The notes beneath the pieces were generated by a model that made no database searches, was not told the DNA's origin, and was given only the letters and a program-made list of their open reading frames with translations. A stretch of 64,000 bases of DNA from Mycobacteriales bacterium (GTDB lineage: Bacteria; Actinomycetota; Actinomycetes; JAFAQI01), in NCBI GenBank assembly GCA_035550055.1, contig DASZRO010000018.1, positions 94,743 to 158,742 of the forward strand. The letters run 5' to 3'. Positions within the stretch are counted from its first letter, which is position 1. Each line of letters opens with the position of its first letter. Shown here piece by piece: positions 13,578 to 57,052 of the stretch. Both the position numbers and the translations under genes were made by a program.

Positions 13578-14042
13578 ATGCCCGCCTCCCGCCGGTCGAC
13601 CACCGCCGACCTGGACGCGCTGGCCGACGTCGTCACCAGGCTCCGGCGCGCGCTGCGCCGCGTCGTCCGCTCGGACCTGCCGTTCGAAACGCTGCCGATG
13701 GCTCAGATCGAGGTGATGCAGCTACTGGCTGAGCGACCAGGGCTGCGCGCCGGCGAGGTGGGCGAGGCGCTGCTGCTCGCGCCGACCACCGTCAGCACGC
13801 TGATCGGGACGTTGCTCGCGCAGGACCTGATCGATCGCCAGCCGGATCCGGCGGATCGCCGCGCGTGGCGGTTGGTGCTCACCGCGGAGGGTGAAGCCCG
13901 CCTCGCCGACTGGCAGCAGTCCAACCGCCGGGTCATGCGCTCAGCCGCGAGCGGCTTGGCCGACGAGGACCTGGTGGCGCTACGCAACGCACTGCCCGCG
14001 CTCACCCGGCTCGTCACGGAACTGGACGGAAACCGCCAGTGA
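13578..14042 (+). CDS. MarR family transcriptional regulator
   Basis: Winged-helix segment LPMAQIEVMQLLAERPGLRAGEVGEALLLAPTTVSTLIGTLLAQDLIDRQPDPADRRAWRL. Divergent from the MFS gene. Confidence 0.85.
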   Translation: MPASRRSTTADLDALADVVTRLRRALRRVVRSDLPFETLPMAQIEVMQLLAERPGLRAGEVGEALLLAPTTVSTLIGTLLAQDLIDRQPDPADRRAWRLVLTAEGEARLADWQQSNRRVMRSAASGLADEDLVALRNALPALTRLVTELDGNRQ

Positions 14043-23155: not shown

Positions 23156-24259
23156 ATGGCCGACGAAACGGTCTTCAAGCCCGGACTGGAAGGCGTCATC
23201 GCCTTCGAAAGCGAGATCGCGGAGCCCGACAAGGAAGGTTCGGCGCTGCGCTACCGAGGCGTCGACATCGAAGATTTGGTCGGCCACGTGAGCTACGGCA
23301 ACGTGTGGGGCCTGCTGGTCGACGGCCGGTTCGCGCCGGGCCTACCGCCCGCCGAGCCGTTCCCGGTCCCCGTCCACTCCGGCGACATCCGGGTCGACGT
23401 ACAAAGCGCTCTGGCCACGTTGGCTCCGGCATGGGGGCTTCAGCAGCTGCTCGACATCGACGACGCGCAGGCGCGCGACGACCTGGCCCGCTGCTCGGTC
23501 ACCGCGATGTCCTTCGTCGCCCAGTCGGCGCGTGGCCTCGGCGAGCCCATGGTGCCGCAGAAGCGGATCGACGAGGCGTCCACCGTGGTCGAGCGGTTCA
23601 TGATCCGCTGGCGGGGCGAACCCGACCCGGCGCACACCAAGGCGGTCGACGCCTACTTCGTCTCGGCGGCGGAGCACGGCATGAACGCGTCCACGTTCAC
23701 CGCGCGGGTCATCGCCTCCACCGGCGCCGATGCGGCCGCGTGCCTGTCCGGAGCGGTCGGGGCGCTGTCCGGTCCCCTGCACGGCGGTGCGCCCTCCCGC
23801 GTCCTGAAGATGCTCGACGAGGTGGCGGCCGAAGGCGACGCGCGTCGCTACGTGAAGCGGCTCTTGGACTCCAAGGAGCGCCTCATGGGGTTCGGCCACC
23901 GCGTCTATCGCGCCGAGGATCCGCGCGCCCGGGTGCTTCGTCGTACCGCGAAGGAGCTCGGCGCTCCCCGCGTCGAGGTCGCGGAGGCGCTCGAGAACGC
24001 CGCGCTCGCCGAGCTGCGGGAGCGCTACCCCGACCGCGTTCTCGCGACCAACGTGGAGTTCTGGTCGGCGGTCGTCCTCGACTTCGCGCAGGTGCCGGCG
24101 CACATGTTCACGTCGATGTTCACCTGCGCCCGGGTGGCCGGCTGGAGCGCCCACATCCTCGAGCAGAAGCGGACCGGCCGGCTGATCCGGCCGTCGGCGA
24201 AGTACGTCGGCCCAGCCAACCGCCCCGTCTCCGCGGTAGAAGGCGCCGACCAGCTCTAA
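23156..24259 (+). CDS. citA: citrate synthase (CitA-type)
   Basis: Citrate synthase fold with the GFGHRVY catalytic His motif. 367 aa. Confidence 0.88.
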   Translation: MADETVFKPGLEGVIAFESEIAEPDKEGSALRYRGVDIEDLVGHVSYGNVWGLLVDGRFAPGLPPAEPFPVPVHSGDIRVDVQSALATLAPAWGLQQLLDIDDAQARDDLARCSVTAMSFVAQSARGLGEPMVPQKRIDEASTVVERFMIRWRGEPDPAHTKAVDAYFVSAAEHGMNASTFTARVIASTGADAAACLSGAVGALSGPLHGGAPSRVLKMLDEVAAEGDARRYVKRLLDSKERLMGFGHRVYRAEDPRARVLRRTAKELGAPRVEVAEALENAALAELRERYPDRVLATNVEFWSAVVLDFAQVPAHMFTSMFTCARVAGWSAHILEQKRTGRLIRPSAKYVGPANRPVSAVEGADQL

Positions 24260-24380
24260 CCCAGCAACGCTCCATTGCTGGGGCTCCCTCCCCAGCAACG
24301 CTGCGTTGCCGGGGGATTGGCCGGGCAACGCTGCGTTGCTGGGGGATAACCCCACGTAATGGAGCGTTGCTGGTCAGTAC
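24260..24380. repeat. tandem array (4 units) of palindromic intergenic repeat CCCCAGCAACGCTGCGTTGCTGGGG
   Basis: Read directly between the citA stop and the serC start. Units are about 25-35 bp, each with a 9 bp inverted arm pair. The same unit recurs at 56922-57014. Confidence 0.8.
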
Positions 24381-24389
24381 CCTTGGCGG

Positions 24390-25514
24390 GTGACTGACGC
24401 CACTCTCGAGATTCCCGCCGACCTGCGGCCAGGCGATGGCCGTTTCGGCTCTGGCCCGACGAAGGTCCGGCCGGAGCAGCTTGCAGCCCTTGCTGCGACC
24501 GGGACGTCCTACCTCGGTACGTCGCACCGGCAGGAGACCGTGCGCTCGGTCGTTCGGCGGGTCCGAGAGGGCATCGCGACGCTGTACGACCTGCCGGACG
24601 GATACGAGGTGATCCTCGGCAACGGCGGCGCGACGATCTTCTGGGACATCGCAACCCTCTGCCTGATCGAGCGTCGCTCGCAGCACATGGCGTTCGGTGA
24701 GTTCTCGACGAAGTTCGCAAAGGCGACCGCCGCGGCACCGCACCTCGAAGAGCCCTCGGTCCTCAAGGCCGACTACGGCCACGCCCCTGACGCCTTCGCG
24801 CCGGAGGCCGGGATCGACGCCTACTGCCTGCCGCACAACGAGACCTCCACCGGCGTGATGACCAGCATCCAGCGACCCGTCGGCGCGGACGCCGGAGCGC
24901 TGATGCTGGTGGATGCGACCAGCGCCGCGGGCGGTCTTCCCGTCGACCTGACGCAGACCGATGCCTATTACTTCGCGCCGCAGAAGGGCTTCGCCTCGGA
25001 CGGCGGGCTGTTCTTCGCGATCCTGTCACCCGCGGCGATCGAGCGCAGCGAGCGGCTCATCCCGCAGCGCTGGGTGCCGTCGACGCTGGACCTCGGAATC
25101 CACATCGAGCAATCGAGGCTCGAGCAGACCTACAACACACCCGCGCTCGCGACGGTGTTCCTCATGGCCGAGCAGGTCGAGTGGATGAACGCGCAGGGTG
25201 GGCTGGCCTGGGCAACCGAGCGCACTGGGGAGTCGGCGCGAATCCTCTACACGTGGGCGGACAAGGCGCCGTACGCCGAAGCCTTCGTCACCGACCCGGC
25301 GAAACGCTCGACCGTCGTCGGCACGATCCGGCTGGACGAGGCGATCGAGGCTGACAAGGTGGTCAAGGCACTGAAAGCCAACGGGATCCTCGACGTCGGC
25401 GCATACCGCGCGGCCGGGTACAACGGCCTGCGCGTCGGCATGTTCCCGGCGATCGATCCGGCAGACGTCGAAGCGCTCACCGCCTGCATCGACTGGGTGG
25501 TCGACCGGCTGTGA
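24390..25514 (+). CDS. serC: phosphoserine aminotransferase (actinobacterial SerC type)
   Basis: N-terminus FGSGPTKVRPEQL and the class-V aminotransferase fold. GTG start. Confidence 0.88.
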   Translation: MTDATLEIPADLRPGDGRFGSGPTKVRPEQLAALAATGTSYLGTSHRQETVRSVVRRVREGIATLYDLPDGYEVILGNGGATIFWDIATLCLIERRSQHMAFGEFSTKFAKATAAAPHLEEPSVLKADYGHAPDAFAPEAGIDAYCLPHNETSTGVMTSIQRPVGADAGALMLVDATSAAGGLPVDLTQTDAYYFAPQKGFASDGGLFFAILSPAAIERSERLIPQRWVPSTLDLGIHIEQSRLEQTYNTPALATVFLMAEQVEWMNAQGGLAWATERTGESARILYTWADKAPYAEAFVTDPAKRSTVVGTIRLDEAIEADKVVKALKANGILDVGAYRAAGYNGLRVGMFPAIDPADVEALTACIDWVVDRL

Positions 25515-32329: not shown

Positions 32330-33157
32330 TTATTCGCCGAGCGCTTCGTTCATCGAACCGGACCGAAACCCCCTCGGGTCCACCTCCACCGACGCGAATC
32401 CGGAGACCGCCGCGAGCAGGTCGCCCCGCCGCGCGAGTGAGGCCACCATGTCGGCATCCACCTCGACGCGGGCGACGTCGCCGAGATCACGAACTCGCAG
32501 GTCCCGTACATCGAGGCCGGCCTCGCGCAGGGCGGAGCGCAGGCCGGCCTCGGCCCGCTCGACGCGGGCCAGCCGGTACGGCGAGACCTCGATCCCATAG
32601 GCGATCCGGCTCGACAGGCAGGCCGCCGCCGGCTTGTCCCAGGTCGGCAGGTCCCACGCCCGGCTGAGCTCGCGGACCTGCGGCTTGGTGAGCCCCGCGT
32701 CCAGTAGCGGGGTGACTGCGCCGCGTTCGGCCGCGGCCCGGATCCCAGGACGGAACCCGGCGACGGCGTCGTCGGCGTTGGTGCCGGTCGCGACGTACGC
32801 CAGGCCGAGGTCATCCGCCAGCGGCGTGAGCACGTCGAGCAGCTCCGCCTTGCAGAAGAAGCAACGGTCGGCGCCGTTGGCCCGGTACCCCTCGCGCGAC
32901 ATCTCGTCGGTGCGCGGCGTCAGGTGACGTACGCCGAGGCCGGCCGCGAAGTCCCTGGCCTGGTCGAGCTCGCTGGCCGGCAGGCTCGCCGACACCGCGG
33001 TCGCCGCCGCGACCCGGTCGGCCCCGAGCGCGCGCGCCGCGGCGGCCACCAGGAACGCGGAGTCGGCGCCCCCGCTGAAGGCGACCAGCACGCTGCCGAG
33101 CTCGGCAAGCCGCGCCTGCAGGACCTCGAGCCTCTCGCGCGATCCGGCCGAACCCAC
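32330..33157 (-). CDS. larE: PP-loop ATP pyrophosphatase, LarE-type sacrificial sulfur transferase family
   Basis: SGGADS PP-loop plus CFFCK and the conserved LarE/TIGR00268 core. Confidence 0.75.
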   Translation of the reverse strand: MGSAGSRERLEVLQARLAELGSVLVAFSGGADSAFLVAAAARALGADRVAAATAVSASLPASELDQARDFAAGLGVRHLTPRTDEMSREGYRANGADRCFFCKAELLDVLTPLADDLGLAYVATGTNADDAVAGFRPGIRAAAERGAVTPLLDAGLTKPQVRELSRAWDLPTWDKPAAACLSSRIAYGIEVSPYRLARVERAEAGLRSALREAGLDVRDLRVRDLGDVARVEVDADMVASLARRGDLLAAVSGFASVEVDPRGFRSGSMNEALGE

Positions 33158-33215
33158 CCCGCGAGGCTATCCACCCCGCGCGGCTATCCACCCCGCGCGG
33201 CTATCCACCCCGCCG
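33153..33215. repeat. 17 bp tandem repeat GCTATCCACCCCGCGCG, 3-4 copies, first copy overlapping the larE start
   Basis: Direct reading of ccaccccgcg recurring with a 17 bp period. Confidence 0.7.
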
Positions 33216-33270
33216 AGCCCAACGTTGTTGGTCTCTCAGGGCCGTCGAAAGACCAACAACGTTGGGCTCG
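33211..33270. repeat. long perfect hairpin repeat (22 bp stem) CCGAGCCCAACGTTGTTGGTCT-15nt-AGACCAACAACGTTGGGCTCGG
   Basis: Perfect inverted repeat read in the sequence, followed by a G-rich tract. A second copy lies at about 53057-53115. Confidence 0.8.
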
Positions 33271-33302
33271 GCGTTGGGGGGCGGCGTTGGGAGGGCGGGG
33301 GG

Positions 33303-35315
33303 TCAGGCCAGGGCGGCGACGAGGGCCGGGGCGTTCGGCGTACCGAGGCCGGTCGAGTCGTCGTAGCCGGGCAACGCCTGCAAGGTTCCGAGTACGCCGA
33401 TCGTTCGCAGCGTGTAGATGACCGCGGACTTCGGGTTGTCCCCGGTCGTGTAGTCCGGCCGGACGTCGGCCAGGCGGGTCAGCGCACCGCGCTTGGCCAC
33501 CGGCACCGGGTCGTAGAACAGCCGCTGCCGCTGCGCCGCGGTGCGCGAGTCGGCGTACATCGTCGGTGTCACCAGCCCGAGCCGGTGATGCGCCTCGGCG
33601 TCCGCGAGCGCCAGCAAGCCGGTGAACAGCGGCGAGGCCAGACTGGTCCCGCCGATCCGGTACTCGCCATAGCGGGTCGCGCCATCGGCGAAGCTCTGCG
33701 TCAGCCCGAGCGCGATCCCGGTGGTCGGGTCGGCGACCATCGACACGTCCGGCTCGACGCGGCCCGGCTGCATCAACCCGCCGTACGTCGCCTCGTCAGC
33801 CGGCACGATCCCGTACTGCCAGGCCGGCTCGCGGAAGATCGTGCTGTCGCCGCCGCCCCCGCCGTACATGTAGACCTTGTGCTGGTAGTCCCACTTCCCC
33901 TTGGTGAACGGGATCTTCTGCGTCCCCCAGTACGACTCGGAGACGCGCGCTCCGGTTCGCCCGATCTGCAGCGTCGTGCCGCCGACCGTGACGACCCCGG
34001 GGCTGGTGGTCGGGAAGTCCGCGACCCGATGCCCGGTGAGGGCGAGCTCGTCGCCGTCGTCACCGGAGGAGAAGGCGATCGTGACACCTTCGGCGGCGGC
34101 CTCGTTCGTGATCGCGTTGAGCACCTGTACGTCGCCGAGCACGGTGTCTTCGCTGTCATCCCCCCACGAGTTGCTCACCAGGTCGACCTTGCCGCTCTCG
34201 ACGGCTTGCGCCAGCGCGAGCAGGAGGTTGTCGACGCCGACCCCGATGCCTGCGACCTCTTCGTACGGGAGGTTGGCGACGGCCGAGTAGTAGGCGATGC
34301 TCGCGTCGGGCGCCATCCCGTGAACCGCTTCGATGTCGAGGGTCTCCTCACCGGCCCAACCCTGTCCGTCGAGGATCGGTACGCCGAGCAACGACAGCTC
34401 CGGCAGGCTCGACTCACCGGGGAAGGTGTGCTGCGTGAGCTGGCCGGGCCGCAACCGCGGCAGCCCCATCCGCTGCGACCACGTGTCGACGTCGGACTCG
34501 ACGGTCGGCGAGGCGTAGGCGTCGACGATCCCGACGGTGACGCCGCGGCCGGTCGAGTGCACCTGGTTCACGCCGTACGCCGAACGGATCTGGCCCATCG
34601 TGTAGCCGCAGACCGCGTACGGCGCGTGCCGGCCCTGGTAGGAGGGCAGCGTCGAGGCGACCTTCTGCCCGTAGTAGCGCGAGCACGGATGCGCGTTGAT
34701 GTACCCCGTCGGTGGTGACGCGTCCGACACCGCCGGGGTCTGCGCGAGCCCGACCACTGTCGCCGCGAGCGGCCGCAGCGCAGTGGGCATCGTCGGCTGC
34801 GACAGCGGCGCGCGCAGCAGGCGGCCGGCGACGTCGAACAGGCCGAAGGTCGTGGCGAACACCTTCCCGACCAGCGCGGACGTGGCGTGTGCCGTGATCA
34901 GCGTGCCGCCGGGCGTCGTGTTGTCGATCGTGAACCCCGCGTGCCGCAGCCAGGTCCGCGCCGCGGCCGTCTCGGCCGGCGCCGGTCCGAACCGGCGGGC
35001 GAACTCGGCGCGGGTCAGGAAGTGCCGGTACGACGCCGACGTCGGGTCGCTGACCGCCGCGTCGAAGCGCCGCAACGCGGCCGGATGACGACCCTTCAGC
35101 AGCACCGAGAACTGCACCAGCGCGTCCGGCGACTCGAGCTTCGCCGGCAGGACGTCTCGCGCCCACGCCGGGATCGCCTCGATCACCGACGCGAGGCTCC
35201 GCACCGGTTGCGCGGTCGGGCCAGCGGCGAGCGCCGGCGCTTCCAGGGCGGTGACCGCGAGTACTGCGGCGGCCGCGGCGAGGCGCAGGGTCGACCCGGT
35301 CTTCACCCCGCTCAT
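33303..35315 (-). CDS. secreted S53 family peptidase (sedolisin) with pro-kumamolisin activation domain
   Basis: Signal peptide, N-terminal pro-kumamolisin activation domain, and a catalytic Ser in GGTSLASPLFTG. Confidence 0.85.
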   Translation of the reverse strand: MSGVKTGSTLRLAAAAAVLAVTALEAPALAAGPTAQPVRSLASVIEAIPAWARDVLPAKLESPDALVQFSVLLKGRHPAALRRFDAAVSDPTSASYRHFLTRAEFARRFGPAPAETAAARTWLRHAGFTIDNTTPGGTLITAHATSALVGKVFATTFGLFDVAGRLLRAPLSQPTMPTALRPLAATVVGLAQTPAVSDASPPTGYINAHPCSRYYGQKVASTLPSYQGRHAPYAVCGYTMGQIRSAYGVNQVHSTGRGVTVGIVDAYASPTVESDVDTWSQRMGLPRLRPGQLTQHTFPGESSLPELSLLGVPILDGQGWAGEETLDIEAVHGMAPDASIAYYSAVANLPYEEVAGIGVGVDNLLLALAQAVESGKVDLVSNSWGDDSEDTVLGDVQVLNAITNEAAAEGVTIAFSSGDDGDELALTGHRVADFPTTSPGVVTVGGTTLQIGRTGARVSESYWGTQKIPFTKGKWDYQHKVYMYGGGGGDSTIFREPAWQYGIVPADEATYGGLMQPGRVEPDVSMVADPTTGIALGLTQSFADGATRYGEYRIGGTSLASPLFTGLLALADAEAHHRLGLVTPTMYADSRTAAQRQRLFYDPVPVAKRGALTRLADVRPDYTTGDNPKSAVIYTLRTIGVLGTLQALPGYDDSTGLGTPNAPALVAALA

Positions 35316-37354
35316 CTTGCCGCCCGGCGCGGGCCGGCGTGCCCTCGCACGCCGGCCAGCGCCGCGACCAGCGGGCCGGCGTTCGGCGTACCGAGACCGG
35401 TCGAGTCGTCGTAACCACGCAGCGACTGGAGCGTGCCGAGGTTCGACAGGATCCGCAGGCTGTAGGCGACCGGCGACTTGGGGTTGTCGGTGGCGGTGTG
35501 GTCCGGCCGGACGTCAGCCAACGTCGACAGGTCGTCGCGCAGCGGCACCGTCACCGGGTCGTAGAACAACCGCTTGCGCTCGGCCGCCTTGCCGGCCTCG
35601 GCGTAGAGGGTGGGCGTGACCAGCCCGAGCCGCTGGTGGCGTTCGGCGGCCGCCAGCGCGAGCAGCCCGGAGAACAGCGGACACGACACGCTCGTCCCAC
35701 CGATCCGGAACTCGCCGTAGCGGTTCGAGCCGTCGGCGAAGTGCTCCGTCAGTCCGATCAGCATGCCGGTGGTGGTGTCGGCCACCATCGACACGTCGGG
35801 CACGACCCGACCCGGCGCGCTCAGCCCGCCGTACGTCGCCTCGGCCGGCGGGACGACGCCGCGCTGCCATGCCGGCTCGGCGTACGCCGTGCTCACGCCG
35901 CCTCCGGCGCCGGAGCTGAACGCCTTGTCCTTCAAGTCCCACGAACCCTTGTCCAGCTTCGCGATGTCGGTGCCCCAGTACGACTCGGAGATCCGCTTGC
36001 CGTTGGCGCCGACCTCCAGCGTGGTGCCGCCGACCGCCGTCACCTCGGGGCTGGTCGCCGGGAAGTCCGCCTGCCGCTTGCCGCTGGCGGCCAGCTCGTC
36101 GCCGGAGTCGCCGGAGGAGAAGTCGAGCGTGATGCCCTCCGCCGCGGCCTGGTTGGCGACGGCGTCGAAGATCTGCAGGTCGCCCGGGGTCAGGTGCTCG
36201 CCGGCCGCTCCCCAGGAGTTGCTGATGATCGCGACCTTGTCATCGGACACCGCCTGCGCCAGCGCGACGAACAGCGGCTCGATCCCGATCTCGAAGCCGA
36301 CCTCGTTGAGACCGATCGCTCCGCCAATCGCGGCGTAGTAGTCGATGTCGGCACCGGGCGCCATCGCGTGGACCGCCTCGACATCGAGGCTCTCCTCCGG
36401 CTCGACGTCCTGCGGGTCGATGATCGGCAGGACCACCGACACCTCCGGCAGGCTCGACAGACCCGGAAGGACGTGTTGGGTGAGCTGGCCGGACCGCAGC
36501 GCCGGAAGACCCATGTGACGCGACCAGGTGTCGACGTCGGACTCGATCGTCGGCGACGCGTACGGGTCGACGATGCCGACCGCGGCGCCCTTGCCGGTCG
36601 AGGCGACCTGGTTGACGCCGTACGCCGACCGCAGCTGCCCGGCGGTGTAGCCGCACAACGCGTAGGGCTGGTGCTTGCCGAGGTAGGTCGGCAGCGACTT
36701 GGCGATCTTCTGGCCGTAGAAGTGCGAGCACGGCCGGGCGTTCACGTACGCCGGCGCCGGCCCGGCGTCCGTCACGGCGCGGTTCTGGGCGAGTCCCATC
36801 ACGGCCGACACGAACGGGTGCAGCGCACCGGGCAGCGACGGCTCGGTCAGCGGCGAGCGCAGCAGCTCACCGGCCACCCGGAACAACCCGAACGTCGTGT
36901 CGAACACCTTGCCGACGACCGACGCCGCCGCGTGCGCGGTGATCAGCGACGTGCTCGTCGAGTCGATCACGAAGCCGGCGTCGCGAAGCCACGACGTGGC
37001 GGCGGCCACCTCGGCCGCAGTCGGGCCGAACCGCCGCTGGTACTCCGCCCTGGTCAGGAAGTGCCGGTACGACGGCGAGGCCGGGTCGCTGACCCGGGCC
37101 ACCAGCTCGTTGAGCGCGGCCGGGTGGCGGCCCTTCAACAGCAGCGAGACCTGGACCGGCGCGGCCGCGGGCTCGACCCGTGCCGGTGCCACGCCGCGGG
37201 CCCACGACGGGATGGCGTCGAGCACGGCGTCAAGCCGCGGCGCCGACCGGTCCGACGCGGTGGCGGCGAGTGCCGGCGCCCCTGTCGCGGCGATTGCGAC
37301 GACGGCCGCGACCGAGATGAAACGCATGGCGGGGCGAGGCTTCATCGGGCTCAT
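35312..37354 (-). CDS. secreted S53 family peptidase (sedolisin), tandem paralog
   Basis: Same architecture as the previous gene, with GGTSVSCPLFSG. ATGA overlap with the paralog. Confidence 0.85.
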   Translation of the reverse strand: MSPMKPRPAMRFISVAAVVAIAATGAPALAATASDRSAPRLDAVLDAIPSWARGVAPARVEPAAAPVQVSLLLKGRHPAALNELVARVSDPASPSYRHFLTRAEYQRRFGPTAAEVAAATSWLRDAGFVIDSTSTSLITAHAAASVVGKVFDTTFGLFRVAGELLRSPLTEPSLPGALHPFVSAVMGLAQNRAVTDAGPAPAYVNARPCSHFYGQKIAKSLPTYLGKHQPYALCGYTAGQLRSAYGVNQVASTGKGAAVGIVDPYASPTIESDVDTWSRHMGLPALRSGQLTQHVLPGLSSLPEVSVVLPIIDPQDVEPEESLDVEAVHAMAPGADIDYYAAIGGAIGLNEVGFEIGIEPLFVALAQAVSDDKVAIISNSWGAAGEHLTPGDLQIFDAVANQAAAEGITLDFSSGDSGDELAASGKRQADFPATSPEVTAVGGTTLEVGANGKRISESYWGTDIAKLDKGSWDLKDKAFSSGAGGGVSTAYAEPAWQRGVVPPAEATYGGLSAPGRVVPDVSMVADTTTGMLIGLTEHFADGSNRYGEFRIGGTSVSCPLFSGLLALAAAERHQRLGLVTPTLYAEAGKAAERKRLFYDPVTVPLRDDLSTLADVRPDHTATDNPKSPVAYSLRILSNLGTLQSLRGYDDSTGLGTPNAGPLVAALAGVRGHAGPRRAAR

Positions 37355-37393
37355 TTCGCTGGGTGGATCAGACCATCCTGCACGTGAAACGAC

Positions 37394-37429
37394 GAAAGGG
37401 ACCAGCCCGGTACGGGGCTGGTCCCTTTC
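37394..37429 (-). terminator. intrinsic terminator downstream of groEL2
   Basis: GAAAGGGACCAGCCC-ggtacg-GGGCTGGTCCCTTTC, a 15 bp perfect stem followed on the minus strand by a U-rich stretch (TTTCGTCGTTT). Confidence 0.7.
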
Positions 37430-37445
37430 GGGAGTTGGCTGGACT

Positions 37446-39245: not shown

Positions 39246-39439
39246 CCGTCGGTCGGGGCCCGAAATCCCCGGTCGGTGAGCTCGCGGCGCGTCCCGCGTC
39301 ACGCCCGGCCGAACGTGTCGTTATTGTGTGCGGGCGCGCCCAACCGGGCGCGCGTCGCATTCGCACCGCCAAACCTGTCCGGCGAATGCGTCGCCTTCAA
39401 TCCCAGACGGACGGGGCCGGGGACCCAAAAGTTCTACCC

Positions 39440-39556
39440 AGCAACTGGAACGCGCACGCGCGTTTCACGGAGCGATTCGCTCCTTGGGGTGAAGCCGTCT
39501 CACGACGGCCGGGTGATCCACTCACCCGAACCCGACAGCTAACTCGGCAGGCGTCG
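39440..39556 (+). ncRNA. candidate ydaO-type (c-di-AMP) riboswitch in the NlpC/P60 leader
   Basis: Segments TTGGGGTGAAGCC, CCGGGTGATCC and ACCCGAACCCGACAGCTAACTCGGCAGGCG resemble conserved ydaO blocks. The SD sequence GGAG lies just downstream. Confidence 0.4.
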
Positions 39557-39567
39557 GAGTGGACTTC

Positions 39568-40377
39568 ATGCTGCCTTCGCATACCTGTGCCCGCTTTCGC
39601 ACCGTCGTACTCGCCGGCCTGACCGCCGGTTTGGTCGTGTCCGCCGCCGGTACTGCCTCCGCCGCCCCGACCGGGCGACCCACGAGCACCGCGACCGACA
39701 CCGAGACCCACTCGGGGACGAACTCCGGGTCCCACTCGGGGACGAACTCCGGGACGGCGAGCCCCGCCGACCCCACCCCGACCGACCCGACCACGACGAG
39801 CCCGTCCGACCCGACCGCGCCCACATCTCCTGGCGATCCGGGCGCGGCGACCGGCGATCCGAGCGATCCGACGACCGGCCCGACACTTCCGATCGACCCG
39901 AACCTGCCGGCCATCACCTTCGAGCTGCCGCAGGCCAGCGCCCACTTGCGCTACGAGCGCGCCCGGTTGCGCCGCCGCGAATGGCACCAGCACGCGGTGA
40001 GCGCGGTGCTCACGGAGGCGCGCCGCCAGGCCGGCAAGCCGTACGTCTACGGCGCAGCCGGACCGAGTTCCTTCGACTGCTCCGGGCTGGTCCGCTACGT
40101 CTTCGGCCACGCGATCGGTGACTGGCTGCCGCACAACGCCGCCGCGCAGTACGCCGTCATCGAACACATCAAGCGTCGTGACCTCGAGCCGGGCGACCTT
40201 GTCTTCCAGGAGTCGGGCGGCTACCCGTTCCACGTCGGGATCTACGCCGGCCACGACAAGTGGTGGCACGCGCCGCACACCGGCGCGGTCGTGCACAAGC
40301 AGACGATCTACCGCGGCCACCTGTTCTACGGCCGAGTCCTCACCAGCCGGATGGCCCGGCAGCGCACCCGCCACTAA
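39568..40377 (+). CDS. secreted NlpC/P60 family peptidoglycan hydrolase
   Basis: Signal peptide, a Thr/Pro/Ser-rich linker, and C-terminal YVYGAAGPSSFDCSGLVRYVFGHAIG...H...H. The ATG at 39568 has an RBS; the track's alternative start is at 39559. Confidence 0.8.
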   Translation: MLPSHTCARFRTVVLAGLTAGLVVSAAGTASAAPTGRPTSTATDTETHSGTNSGSHSGTNSGTASPADPTPTDPTTTSPSDPTAPTSPGDPGAATGDPSDPTTGPTLPIDPNLPAITFELPQASAHLRYERARLRRREWHQHAVSAVLTEARRQAGKPYVYGAAGPSSFDCSGLVRYVFGHAIGDWLPHNAAAQYAVIEHIKRRDLEPGDLVFQESGGYPFHVGIYAGHDKWWHAPHTGAVVHKQTIYRGHLFYGRVLTSRMARQRTRH

Positions 40378-40458
40378 GAAAACACAAACGTGACGCGTGA
40401 GCCCTCCTGAGGCGGGTCACCCACCTCAGGAGGCTGCTCTCGTCACGTTTGTGTTCGC
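40378..40458. repeat. nested palindrome P1: GAAAACACAAACGTGACG..[CCTCCTGAGG-loop-CCTCAGGAGG]..CGTCACGTTTGTGTTCGC
   Basis: 15 bp outer arms and 10 bp inner arms read directly. The right arm encodes the C-terminus of the 40426-41352 gene. Confidence 0.8.
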
Positions 40459-41352
40459 TTCGGCACCGAGGTCGAGCAGCCGGCGTACCGCGGTCACGAC
40501 GTACGCCGGATCCTGCGTGACGTCGAACCACGTCACGACGGCAAGGCGCCAGCCGGCGGCGGTGATCGCCGTCCAACGACGCCGATCCCGGCGGAAGTAC
40601 TCGCGCGAGGAGTGATAGGCGTAGCCGTCGCATTCGAGTACGGCGCGCAGCTGCGGCCAGGCGAAGTCGACGAAGCCGACCCAGCCGGTTGCGCTGCTCT
40701 TCAACGAGAGCTGAGTGACCGGGATCGGCAGCCCTTCGCGCCAGAGCAGGACGCGGGTCAGTGACTCGAGCACCGAGCCGCTGAGCGGATCGACCAGGCC
40801 GGCGACGGTCTGGATGCGCAGCCGGCCCGGCCCTTTGGCGCCGCGAGCGACCGCCGCGAACTCCGCGTCGGTGAAGTGGCGCTGCCGGATGAAGGCATCG
40901 ATGATCGCGACCGCCTGGTCGATCGGTGCGTGCCGGGCGATGTCGAGACAGGTACGCAGCGGCGTCGTCACCAGGGCGCCGTTGCGGAACTCGACGTCGG
41001 TGCGCGCAAGGTCCGCACGGTGCAGCCGGACGCCTGCCACCGCCTCGGCGTACCGCCCTCGATGGCGCGGCACCGTCACGTGGATCTGGGTCAACGGCGT
41101 CGGCAGGTCGACGCCGTGCCAGGCGACCGCGGATTGGTAGCTGATCACGGCGTACCAGCCGTTGGCGATCCGACGCGGCTCGGGCAGCGGGTCGCCGACG
41201 GCGTACACCCCGCGTGCGATGCGGGCGACCGAGCCGGTGCTCACGAGCTCACTCAGCACCCGGGCGCTGACCCCGGTCGCGAGCACTTGCGAGCGGGTCA
41301 GGACCCCGCCGTTGTCACGCGCGATCGGGGCGATGAGGGTGAGCGCATCCAC
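40426..41352 (-). CDS. AbiEi_4 (type IV TA antitoxin-like N-domain) plus DUF559 (Vsr/PD-(D/E)xK-like endonuclease fold) protein
   Basis: N-terminal segment GVLTRSQVLATGVSARVLSELVSTGSVARIARGVYAV and C-terminal segment VDFAWPQLRAVLECDGYAYHSSREYFRRDRRRWTAITAAGWRLAVVTWFDV. Confidence 0.75.
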   Translation of the reverse strand: MDALTLIAPIARDNGGVLTRSQVLATGVSARVLSELVSTGSVARIARGVYAVGDPLPEPRRIANGWYAVISYQSAVAWHGVDLPTPLTQIHVTVPRHRGRYAEAVAGVRLHRADLARTDVEFRNGALVTTPLRTCLDIARHAPIDQAVAIIDAFIRQRHFTDAEFAAVARGAKGPGRLRIQTVAGLVDPLSGSVLESLTRVLLWREGLPIPVTQLSLKSSATGWVGFVDFAWPQLRAVLECDGYAYHSSREYFRRDRRRWTAITAAGWRLAVVTWFDVTQDPAYVVTAVRRLLDLGAEANTNVTRAAS

Positions 41353-41439
41353 GGCGGCAACCGTGACGGAGGCAACCTGCGCCGCCCAGACCCAATCGCC
41401 CCCCTGTGGAAATCACCCGCAGGGCGCCCCGGTACGCAA

Positions 41440-41520
41440 GGAAACACAAACGTTGCGGAATCCCGTTATCGCGTTGGAGGTCGCTGGCGAGAACGTGATT
41501 CCTGCAACGTTTGTGTTTCC
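41440..41520. repeat. nested palindrome P2: GGAAACACAAACGTTGC..[GGAATCCCGTT..AACGTGATTCC]..GCAACGTTTGTGTTTCC
   Basis: 17 bp perfect outer arms sharing the AACACAAACGT core with P1. Confidence 0.8.
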
Positions 41521-41577
41521 TTCGGTACGTCGAAGGGCTACGGCGGGTACGGCGGGTCAGCCGGCGGGTACGGCGGG

Positions 41578-41853
41578 TCAGCCGCCGGCTACGGCGGGGA
41601 TGATCGACACCGATGCGCCGTCGGGCGTTGGCGTCTGCAGGCCTTCGGCGAAGCGGACGTCGTCGTCGTTGACGTAGACGTTGACGAACCTGCGGAGCTT
41701 GCCGTCCTCGTCGAGCACCCGCGCCCGGATGCCGGTGTGGTCGGCTTCGAGGGCGTCGAGTACGTCGGCGAGGGTCGCACCCTCCGCGGTGACCTCGGCC
41801 GCGCCGCCGGTCAGCGATCGCAGGATCGTGGGCACGCGCACTGTCACTGCCAT
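41578..41853 (-). CDS. MoaD/ThiS-family sulfur-carrier protein (CysO/MetO-like), C-terminal GG
   Basis: MAVTVRVPTILRSLTGG...RFVNVYVNDDDVRFAEGLQTPTPDGASVSIIPAVAGG* closely parallels M. tuberculosis CysO. Confidence 0.8.
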   Translation of the reverse strand: MAVTVRVPTILRSLTGGAAEVTAEGATLADVLDALEADHTGIRARVLDEDGKLRRFVNVYVNDDDVRFAEGLQTPTPDGASVSIIPAVAGG

Positions 41854-43165: not shown

Positions 43166-43288
43166 AGAGGCCTTCCGTCCTCATCTTCCCCCCGGACGGT
43201 TGCCCGAAGGCCGGATGTGGCACCTGCCCGAGACGGGTGGTTGCCGGGGCTTCAACGGGCCGGTTCCCTCAGCCCCTCTTGATGAGAG

Positions 43289-47909: not shown

Positions 47910-47982
47910 AGCCCCGTGTCCGGATTGAACGGACGACCGCTCGCTTACAAGGCGAGTGCTCTACCACTGAGCTAACGGGGCA
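47910..47982 (-). tRNA. tRNA-Thr (anticodon UGU)
   Basis: Cloverleaf read on the minus strand: GCCCCGT-TA-GCTC-AGTGGT-AGAGC-A-CTCGC-CTTGTAA-GCGAG-CGGTC-GTCCG-TTCAATC-CGGAC-ACGGGGC-T. No encoded CCA. Confidence 0.85.
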
Positions 47983-51660: not shown

Positions 51661-53037
<1,377 letters not shown>

Positions 53038-53056
53038 CGACCCACCCTATTGATCC

Positions 53057-53115
53057 GCCGAGCCCAACGTTGTTGGTCTTTCGCGGCGCCCGAAAGACCA
53101 AAAAGGTTGGGCTCG
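53057..53115. repeat. second copy of the long hairpin repeat GAGCCCAACGTTGTTGGTCTTTCG-7nt-CGAAAGACCAAAAAGGTTGGGCTC
   Basis: Read directly. Shares CCGCCGAGCCCAACGTTGTTGGTCT with the copy at 33211-33270. Confidence 0.75.
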
Positions 53116-53119
53116 ACGC

Positions 53120-53629
53120 TTAGACGGCGACGAGGAGGGCGGTGGCGATGGCCGCGAGGCCCTCGCCGCGACCGGTCAGCCCGAGACCGTCGGTGGTCGT
53201 CGCCGACACCGAGACCGGCGCCCCGATGGCACTGGACAGGGCAGCCTCCGCCTCGACGCGGCGGGAGCCGAGCTTGGGCGTCTCGCCGATCAGCTGCACC
53301 GCGACGTTGCCGATCGCCCAACCCGCCACGATGAGCCGGCGGGCGGTCTCGGTCAGCAGCGCCACGCCGGAGGCGCCCGCCCACCGGGGATCCCCGGTCC
53401 CGAACTGTGCGCCGAGGTCGCCCATGCCCGCCGCCGACAGCAACGCGTCGCACGCGGCGTGCGCGACGACGTCCCCGTCCGAATGACCGGCGAGCCCTCG
53501 CTCGCCCGGCCAGGCCAGCCCGGCGAGAGCGAGCGGACGATCGTCGGCGAACGGATGCACGTCGACCCCGATGCCGATTCGGGGTACGCCGGCCAACGCC
53601 TGGTTGAGCGGGACGACCTCCTCGCTCAT
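53120..53629 (-). CDS. ispF: 2-C-methyl-D-erythritol 2,4-cyclodiphosphate synthase
   Basis: [20 protein letters not shown] and the full IspF fold. 169 aa. Confidence 0.9.
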
Positions 53630-56921: not shown

Positions 56922-57014
56922 CCTTCCCCCCAGCAACGCTGCGTTGCTGGGGGATCTCCCGGGCGACGCTGCGTTGCTGGGCAAAAAGCCGAGGCAACGC
57001 TGCGTTGCTGGGGT
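56922..57014. repeat. tandem array (3 units) of palindromic repeat CCCCAGCAACGCTGCGTTGCTGGGG
   Basis: Same unit as at 24260-24380, between convergent genes. Confidence 0.8.
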
Positions 57015-57052
57015 GGGGTGGGGGTCGGGGTGGGGTGGGGGTGGGGTGGGGT
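57014..57052 (+). repeat. GGGGT-type G-tract (8 runs of G4-5), potential G-quadruplex, abutting the gpmA stop
   Basis: TGGGGTGGGGTGGGGGTCGGGGTGGGGTGGGGGTGGGGTGGGGTC read directly. Confidence 0.75.

Follow-up and report, generated by a model that had tools for sequence, protein, structure and literature searches.

A dispersed, REP-like extragenic palindrome at gene 3' ends in uncultured Mycobacteriales, with duplicated sequence modules beside it

Extragenic palindromes are well studied in Proteobacteria and scarcely described in high-GC actinobacteria, where the way transcripts end is poorly understood. The repetitive extragenic palindrome (REP), BIME and REPIN elements of Proteobacteria are dispersed, imperfectly conserved palindromes at gene 3' ends or between the genes of operons, and GTAG/CGTC-tagged REP families have not been reported in Actinobacteria (PMC3733652). 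In Mycobacterium, the TRIT is a sequence-conserved palindromic hairpin without a U-tail, dispersed in the genome and tightly positioned at stop codons (Gardner et al. 2011, PMC3152330), and miniature inverted-repeat transposable elements (MITEs) such as Correia, ERIC and RUP are small non-coding elements made essentially of two inverted repeats. Here we describe a palindrome, which we call family A, in a 64,000-nt stretch of a Mycobacteriales bacterium (GCA_035550055.1, contig DASZRO010000018.1, positions 94,743 to 158,742 of the forward strand; G+C content 70.5%), referred to below as the window. One copy, W1, lies between a gene for an S53/sedolisin-type peptidase and larE, and another, W2, between ispF and cysS. 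The reading we favor, with moderate confidence, is that family A is a REP-like extragenic palindrome that would form a very stable RNA hairpin at the 3' end of the upstream transcript, with slippage duplications around it.

The two copies in the window are:

33211 to 33273, no strand assigned: family-A palindrome W1, 63 nt, with 27-28-nt arms and a 7-9-nt loop, 29 nt 3' of the S53 stop codon.
53056 to 53118, no strand assigned: family-A palindrome W2, beginning 1 nt past the ispF stop codon and ending 18 nt ahead of the cysS GTG.

The arms of W1 (33211-33237 and 33247-33273) are 27 nt long and 96% complementary; the perfect 22-bp stem noticed in the original prediction, which was made from the sequence of the window alone, is real and forms part of these longer arms. 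Folded as RNA, W1 reaches -54.2 kcal/mol, with z = -11.8 against shuffled sequences, and it is the top match (84.8 bits) of a covariance model, R1, built from six copies. W2, whose 28-nt arms (53056-53083 and 53091-53118) are 89% complementary, folds at -42.7 kcal/mol with z = -7.7. It is the second hairpin that had been predicted in the ispF-cysS spacer, again between a minus-strand stop codon and the next start. That both copies have the same orientation, as was also claimed, means little, since a near-perfect palindrome has direction only in its loop and mismatches. A 20-mer of the arm matches the window four times with three or fewer mismatches, against a chance expectation of 0.01. In a predicted fold of W1 with its flanks (171 nt), the flanks lengthen the hairpin, giving -114 kcal/mol and z = -7.5, which is weak evidence at such a G+C content.

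Orthologous loci in related assemblies were reached through homologues of IspF and LarE, which are 82-88% identical in those assemblies; these loci and others in relatives carry L-numbers below. The nearest named homologues are from Protofrankia for LarE (79%) and from Frankiaceae for IspF (75%). Altogether there are eight family-A copies, spread over four unrelated (non-orthologous) loci and at least five assemblies of related uncultured Mycobacteriales, two of the eight being halves bordered by an insertion sequence (IS). Every copy is intergenic and lies 1-30 nt past a stop codon, matching the extragenic position at gene 3' ends that defines REPs: the outer base of the arm falls at +1 to +5 nt in W2, L065, L066, L069, L062 and L073, and at about +25-30 nt in W1 and L005. 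The last of these, in a Mycobacteriales metagenome-assembled genome (DASZPL010000109.1), has the same 63-nt palindrome in an unrelated locus, some 24 nt past a stop codon, and its downstream flank, as read from sequence, resembles the 3' end of a convergent gene. L005 was the sole true match among seven loci returned when GAGCCCAACNTTNTTGGTCT was searched in a collection holding one genome per species, from which the source species is evidently absent; the other six were chance matches in unrelated phyla. A scan of viral contigs with the outer stem, followed by R1, gave only unrelated terminator-like hairpins or coding sequence, and no hint of a phage origin. As R1 finds no further copy in the window (2 per 64 kb) or in about 250 kb of related loci, family A is not dense. 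What had been called a genome-specific repetitive extragenic palindrome is thus indeed a dispersed extragenic palindrome, found at four loci and in several genomes, and it is specific to a lineage, not to one genome.

Family-A elements are 63-64 bp long, and in their alignment (A1) the outer stem, CG(C/T)CGAGCCC(A/T)AC, is nearly invariant, while the inner stem and loop vary between genomes. Across the 28-pair stem, 94.6% of cells hold standard pairs and 9 of the 28 pairs have changed on both sides, for example CGTTGTT/AACAACG versus CCTTTTT/AAAAAGG, or TTGGTC versus TGCGTC or ACGCGTC. None of 500 shuffles reaches these values, and control alignments in which the arms were slid are 35-45% paired. 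All six copies folded as RNA have z between -7.7 and -12.5, with energies of -43 to -57 kcal/mol. On this comparison the alignment shows that arm symmetry is actively kept, a pattern that fits selection for an RNA or DNA hairpin and templated correction within a DNA palindrome alike.

The far better conservation of the outer stem than of the inner stem would also fit sequence-specific recognition, as it might if the outer 13 bp of each arm were bound by a dimeric protein, for instance a recombinase or some nucleoid-associated factor. Recognition of this kind has been proposed for TRIT as well (PMC3152330), and an IS30-family transposase evidently recognizes the element (see below). We nevertheless hold a protein-binding DNA site to be very unlikely: the half-sites would be about 40 bp apart, yet the intervening stem stays paired, which a simple operator does not need, and no candidate protein is linked to the element.

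Comparison of orthologous sites bears on how the copies are inherited and lost. At the ispF-cysS site, L065 and L066/L067 have the palindrome in the orthologous place, beginning 1-3 nt past the stop codon, and L062 has a left arm (a half copy) followed by an IS. L063 and L064 have flanks nearly those of L066 and a 28-nt spacer in which only CCGC joined to TCGGCG is left. Between the filled site of L066 and the empty site of L063 the difference is 55 nt, the junction shows a microhomology of 2 nt (GC), and the empty site retains all the outermost bases of the right arm (CTCGGCG). Because the outermost stem bases are kept and the junction has this microhomology, the L063 site seems to have lost its palindrome by deletion and not to be a target that never had one. 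At the S53-larE site, the palindrome stands straight after the stop codon in L069/L070, on a contig shared with L066, and the site is empty in L072 (23-nt spacer) and L068 (44 nt). The copies at the ispF site share a CCTTTT signature across genomes and those at the larE site share CGTTGT, which points to vertical inheritance of the copies. W2 has one arm of each type, CGTTGTT as in W1 and CCTTTTT as at the ispF-cysS site of relatives, and this suggests conversion between copies within a genome. The original prediction had called for a comparison of the flanks for target-site duplications; none that convinces was seen, and W1, W2, L005 and L069 lack flanking direct repeats.

Two further observations concern these sites. 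In L060 (6465-8369, GCA_035547515.1), the ispF-cysS palindrome is replaced by an unrelated, lower-GC insert of 1.9 kb with two small open reading frames (ORFs), beside which the cysS TAGGCT-N6-GTG module is intact. In a relative with LarE P0131 (JGI 3300056388), the gene map places a 432-aa gene without a Pfam match and a 54-aa ORF between S53 and larE, suggesting that this spacer is a recurrent insertion site.

These histories bring in a serious rival, which we consider on the unlikely side: that family A is a selfish or neutral DNA palindrome without an RNA role, tolerated in the few dispensable bases that separate a stop codon from the promoter after it, its symmetry kept by templated repair at the DNA level and by conversion between copies. 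It gains from the loss of the copy in L063/L064 without visible consequence, from the empty S53-larE sites of L072 and L068, and from the W1-type arm of W2 with the conversion it suggests. Against it, near-perfect pairing has persisted at two orthologous sites across genomes with 82-88% identical LarE and IspF, long perfect palindromes are normally unstable, and placement relative to stop codons is tight at four independent loci.

Both half copies are from GCA_036267875.1. The gene fragment beside the L062 arm encodes an IS30-family transposase (NCBIfam NF033563, 117 bits, cut-off 80), and the second IS copy, in L073, adjoins the stop codon of a PQQ-repeat gene. The element sits at the center of two different family-A palindromes (L062 10479-10840 and L073 1-372), and both contigs end within it. 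Over 312 nt the two IS copies share 95% identity, which rises to 100% in the last approximately 100 nt, as far as ...CTGTTGCGACGACCGGCTGAATCCGCC (GGCGGATTCA...). In the 33 nt that follow, identity is only 67%, and both sequences finish with ACGT(T/A)GGGCTCGGCG, followed by the neighbor's stop codon. Complete IS30-family relatives from Curtobacterium and from Mycobacterium plasmids (L074 and L075) have the terminal repeats CGGGTTCAGCTGGTCGTTGCAAC and GACTCAAGTGGTCGCTGTAAC, which align with GGCGGATTCAGCCGGTCGTCGCAAC. Since identity breaks at that point and the inverted repeats of complete relatives align there, we place the end of the IS at GGCGGATTCAGCCGGTCGTCGCAAC, and the 33 nt beyond it are in each case one 28-nt arm and 5 nt of loop, the two copies having entered different family-A palindromes. 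As judged from these junctions, the palindrome is a target of the IS30-family element, struck at its center of symmetry, and not a derivative of it. Consistent with this, IS30 favors near-palindromic hot spots (PMC9333248), and REPs are known as IS targets and insertion hot spots (PMC1525189).

The arm sequence that borders both IS copies could in principle have the opposite meaning, namely that family A is a miniature element made from the two terminal inverted repeats of an IS30-family element and moved by its transposase. That origin needs CGCCGAGCCC... as the terminal repeat at both ends of the IS, and is contradicted by the terminus GGCGGATTCAGCCGGTCGTCGCAAC, which has no similarity to the palindrome arms. 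Identity between the IS copies falls from 100% to 67% exactly at this terminus, and what remains is arm and half loop. We give this origin almost no credence.

We then considered the genes that bound the two spacers:

32330 to 33157, minus strand: larE (NCBIfam TIGR00268 LarE, 281.7 bits, cut-off 150).
33303 to 35315, minus strand: S53/sedolisin-type peptidase gene, upstream of W1 (Pfam Pro-kuma_activ and Peptidase_S8).
53120 to 53629, minus strand: ispF, upstream of W2 (Pfam YgbB, 1.2e-51).
51661 to 53037, minus strand: cysS, downstream of W2 (Pfam tRNA-synt_1e, 1.2e-118).

Each spacer runs from a minus-strand stop codon to the next minus-strand start (S53 stop 33303 to larE GTG 33157; ispF stop 53120 to cysS GTG 53037). 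The gene order S53, larE, cspA is maintained in relatives, and GCA_964558155.1 has the same 275-aa larE gene call. L008, which is another assembly of the window's organism, has an S53-larE spacer identical but for two single-nucleotide polymorphisms (SNPs). In gene direction this spacer reads TGA, CCCCCCGCCCTCCCAACG CCGCCCCCCAACG, palindrome, CGGGGTGGATAGCCGCG CGGGGTGGATAGCCGCG CGGGGTGGATAGCCTCG, CGGG GTG GGT TCG.... The S53 gene itself is a tandem pair in the window organism (33303-35315 and about 35312-37330) and likewise in L008, and is single between groEL and larE in L068, L069 and L072.

Between the palindrome and larE, and between W2 and cysS, lie the following:

33154 to 33213, minus strand: 17-nt tandem array, 3.5 copies of CGGGGTGGATAGCC(G/T)CG in the minus-strand reading.
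33164 to 33169, minus strand: TAGCCT, putative larE -10 hexamer, at -12 to -7 from the GTG, a leaderless-type spacing.
53044 to 53049, minus strand: TAGGGT, putative cysS -10 hexamer, at -12 to -7 from the GTG at 53035-53037.

In the leaderless sigma-A promoters of M. tuberculosis, TANNNT precedes the transcription start by 7-12 nt and a -35 consensus is lacking (PMC3898074). The sequences ahead of larE and cysS have the hexamer in just this position before the GTG, and both genes appear to start as leaderless mRNAs at that codon. The larE TAGCCT is at exactly -12 to -7 in the window, L072 and L068 and one base off in L069, its TAGCC and final T being invariant in the window's proximal unit and in these three relatives. 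The cysS hexamer TAGG(G/C)T is also at -12 to -7 in L063, L065, L066 and L060. The 6 nt between TANNNT and GTG vary among relatives while the hexamer is conserved. The window has few TANNNT sites (47 over both strands, 3.7e-4 per position), and 10 of the 47 stand 5-7 nt ahead of the initiating ATG or GTG of a long, GC3-rich ORF. The hexamers are present at the empty sites of L072 and L063 too, and the idea that the hairpin is a -35 element or promoter source was rejected on that ground.

The original prediction had described four copies of CCACCCCGCG with a 17-bp period, the first overlapping the larE initiation region. Three are in register (33154, 33171 and 33188); the fourth, at 33205, matches at only 9 of 10 positions (CCACCCCGCC) and runs into the palindrome. 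The overlap is as described, the larE GTG (33155-33157) lying within the first copy, and the start GTGGGTTCG is kept in relatives. Tandem Repeats Finder reports period 17, 3.5 copies, 97% matches and a score of 113 for 33154-33213, joint highest in the window. The unit comprises a -10 hexamer, 6 nt and GTG; that is, it is larE's own module, triplicated. The leader is single-copy in L072, L068 and L069, where relatives have a single ...GG(G/A)TAGCCTC(G/A)C...GTGGG(T/G)TCG, and triplicated in the window and in L008, whose array has equal copy number and one SNP. We know of no described counterpart to such a triplicated -10/spacer/GTG module. The paralogous hexamers at 33181-33186 and 33198-33203 read TAGCCG, the larE-proximal copy alone keeping the final T, and these two upstream units are probably dead promoter copies. 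The suggestion that the repeats could modulate initiation has the right place, the larE initiation module, but calls for refinement: the unit is a duplicate of that module, and the two upstream copies lack the hexamer's last T. The array also adds GTGs 17, 34 and 51 nt upstream of the larE start. The first two are out of frame and the third is in frame but ended by the TAG of the proximal hexamer; from their sequence context, we regard all of these as by-products. Reading the in-frame TAG and GTG of each unit as translational coupling or as a 13-codon upstream ORF was also considered, and the first half of TANNNT explains the conservation of TAG better.

On the other side of W1 lies a second duplication:

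33274 to 33302, no strand assigned: 13-nt tandem repeats of the arm end (CGTTGGGCTCGG / CGTTGGGGGGCGG / CGTTGGGAGGGCGG), covered by Tandem Repeats Finder rows 33260-33291 and 33269-33298 with period 13.

This tract, which the original prediction gave as a G-rich run following the hairpin, is present. It is not an independent feature but repeats the arm end CGTTGGGCTCGG in tandem, in 13-nt units. Rich in G on the plus strand and in C in the mRNA, the tract follows directly after the S53 stop codon and includes one of the window's seven canonical G-quadruplex motifs (33276-33302). The repeats are absent from the orthologous spacer of L069, where the palindrome abuts the stop codon.

A comparable tract accompanies another set of palindromes, family B (CCCAGCAACGCTGCGTTGCTGGG), which are short and occur in the window as four units at 24260-24373 and three at 56929-57005; none was found in the fetched loci of relatives. 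The four units fill the spacer from a plus-strand stop codon (TAA, 24257-24259) to a leaderless-type start, TACCCT-N6-GTG at 24390, and the three units lie between convergent genes. Straight after the latter, and straight before the stop of a minus-strand gene, is a (TGGGG)n run (57009-57052). Together with 33276-33302 it accounts for three of the seven canonical G-quadruplex motifs of the window, all abutting palindromic repeats. At W1, and again at 57010-57051 beside the family-B palindromes, a stop codon is followed by a C-rich tract (G-quadruplex on the template strand) and then by hairpins, a layout that resembles predicted Rho-dependent terminators and is absent from the other family-A copies.

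Taken together, these features suggest how the spacer may work and how it may have arisen. In the REP-like reading that we favor, the spacer is a composite of three parts differing in age: the palindrome, the 17-bp array and the G-rich run. The upstream mRNA would end in the transcribed palindrome, folded into a hairpin of -43 to -57 kcal/mol. By analogy with REP hairpins, it may hinder 3' exonucleases and cause RNA polymerase to pause or, weakly, to terminate. It would also stand between the upstream transcript and a promoter that starts only about 7 nt further on, limiting read-through. The array, in which the larE module is triplicated, is specific to the window's lineage, and both duplications (17-bp and 13-nt) most likely stem from replication slippage or template switching beside a strong hairpin.

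Several points weigh against this reading. Templated (quasipalindrome) correction can give paired arm changes without RNA selection, and sense-strand mispairs (six G-U versus two A-C cells) are too few to separate selection at the RNA level from selection at the DNA level. The roles in transcription, termination and stabilization are inferred by analogy. The exact-arm scan of 185,579 species genomes gave one genome only, and all relatives are metagenome assemblies labeled only 'Mycobacteriales bacterium'. A metagenome scan with the inner stem TTGGTCTYTC..GAAAGACCAA, which is the variable part of family A and a poorer target than the conserved outer stem, gave no family-A copy; all 51 matches were unrelated hairpins in low- or medium-GC contigs. 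No transposase or other mobilizing gene is linked to the family, and the link between palindrome and leaderless promoter comes from two independent co-directional loci only. Finally, no U-tract follows any copy on either strand, a consensus terminator scan is silent at the hairpin, and in M. tuberculosis Term-seq data, hairpins without a U-tail, TRIT included, overlap 2-4% of mapped 3' ends (bioRxiv 10.1101/2022.06.01.494293). As such hairpins rarely coincide with mapped M. tuberculosis 3' ends, a strong terminator role is unlikely; the missing U-tract and the rarity of termination at similar hairpins also count for the neutral palindrome described above.

The same observations bear on the proposal made in the original prediction, a canonical intrinsic terminator or attenuator of larE, in which the hairpin ends S53 transcription and the repeats tune initiation of larE translation. 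A very stable GC-rich hairpin close behind a stop codon speaks for it, as does the C-rich, G-poor, rut-like mRNA upstream of the W1 hairpin. Of the two parts of an intrinsic terminator, though, only the stem-loop is there: no T-run follows any copy and the terminator scan is negative at the hairpin. The C-rich tract is missing from the other copies, and cysS, an aminoacyl-tRNA synthetase gene, would be cut off if it depended on read-through. Because larE and cysS have their own conserved -10 hexamers downstream of it, the hairpin is upstream of, and outside, their presumed transcripts and cannot attenuate them. We consider this proposal distinctly improbable. A bolder version of the boundary idea, also improbable, is that family A is a selected gene-boundary module, a TRIT-like element outside Mycobacterium. 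A factor acting on the outer stem would make it an efficient bidirectional terminator or insulator that shields the leaderless promoter, and the triplicated larE module would be a slippage-prone expression switch working by gain and loss of units.

Other inverted repeats and RNA elements were seen in these loci. In the window, long inverted repeats at 40376-40460 and 41432-41528 flank a minus-strand gene (40426-41412) and have a common core, AACACAAACGT, in four arms. Their A+T content is unusually high for this genome, and they could serve a regulator as operators; next comes a 21-nt tandem repeat (41541-41598). L063 has, at 13743-13805, an unrelated perfect palindrome of 63 nt (30-bp arms, 3-nt loop), flanked by the 3' ends of two opposed genes, one for a sigma factor and one for a BBE-type oxidase. 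Downstream of groEL in the window, a perfect 16-bp hairpin (37393-37430, CGAAAGGGACCAGCCC...) has conserved counterparts at the orthologous place of L068 and L072; given that conservation, it is an ordinary gene-specific 3' hairpin, unlike the dispersed family A. At Rfam gathering thresholds, the window also has a SAM riboswitch (43178-43288, minus strand), a ydaO c-di-AMP riboswitch (39382-39568, plus strand) and a tRNA gene (47910-47981, minus strand). Family A itself has no Rfam match at the gathering threshold, and at E up to 10 it meets only sub-threshold microRNA-precursor models, as expected of a generic long hairpin.

Family A is a clean comparative case, with one palindrome at two gene boundaries in diverged genomes, paired arm changes, one loss, and IS30-family insertions at the center of symmetry. 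The recurring layout of stop codon, palindrome and leaderless promoter makes it a candidate boundary element and, if the function is true, it would give the engineering of actinobacteria a compact part for termination or insulation. The locus also carries a warning for annotation: repeats over a start codon can be duplicated promoter/start modules, and each extra GTG is not a gene start.

How does family A compare with the systems described above? It shares with REP/BIME/REPIN elements a dispersed, extragenic distribution (gene 3' ends or the gaps within operons), imperfect conservation, a maintained palindromic structure and the property of being an IS hot spot (PMC1525189). The function put forward above, in which a 3' hairpin would shield the upstream mRNA and hold back part of the read-through, is classically that of REPs. 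The differences lie in size, head, number and transposase. REPs are 20-40 bp long with 6-13-bp stems (PMC3733652), whereas family A measures 63-64 bp with 27-28-bp arms. Tagged REPs have an unpaired GTAG/CGTC head, whereas the family-A ends CGCC/CGTC pair with GGCG/GACG in every copy (pairs 1-4); this paired CG(T/C)C head and the far longer stems rule out membership of the CGTC-tagged REPs. REPs typically exceed 100 copies per genome and the copy number of family A is probably modest; REPs are associated with a RAYT transposase, and none is known for family A, within a look limited to the window.

With TRIT, family A shares a sequence-conserved, palindromic hairpin without a U-tail, dispersal in an actinobacterial genome, tight positioning at stop codons and bidirectionality through symmetry; a sequence-specific factor has been suggested for TRIT. 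TRIT, however, is centered about 8 nt inside the coding sequence (PMC3152330) and reported only in the genus Mycobacterium, whereas family A begins 1-30 nt past the stop codon in a different lineage, and TRIT's own terminator role is doubtful. Family A resembles MITEs in being small, non-coding and essentially two inverted repeats, with presence/absence polymorphism at orthologous sites; terminal inverted repeats are present trivially, as the whole element is an inverted repeat. Unlike MITEs, it has no clear target-site duplication, the 2-nt microhomology being equally consistent with deletion, and no known parent IS with matching ends; the sole linked IS, of the IS30 family, has the unrelated inverted repeat GGCGGATTCAGCCGGTCGTCGCAAC. 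The TAGCCT and TAGGGT hexamers at -12 to -7 of the GTG, conserved and enriched before ORF starts here, are like mycobacterial leaderless promoters, with the difference that larE has its whole module of -10 hexamer, spacer and GTG tandemly triplicated. Family A thus belongs to the general class of dispersed extragenic palindromes, a familiar kind of repeat that calls for no new mechanism, with two uncommon local features: the targeting of its loop by an IS30-family element and the triplicated leaderless promoter/start module alongside it.

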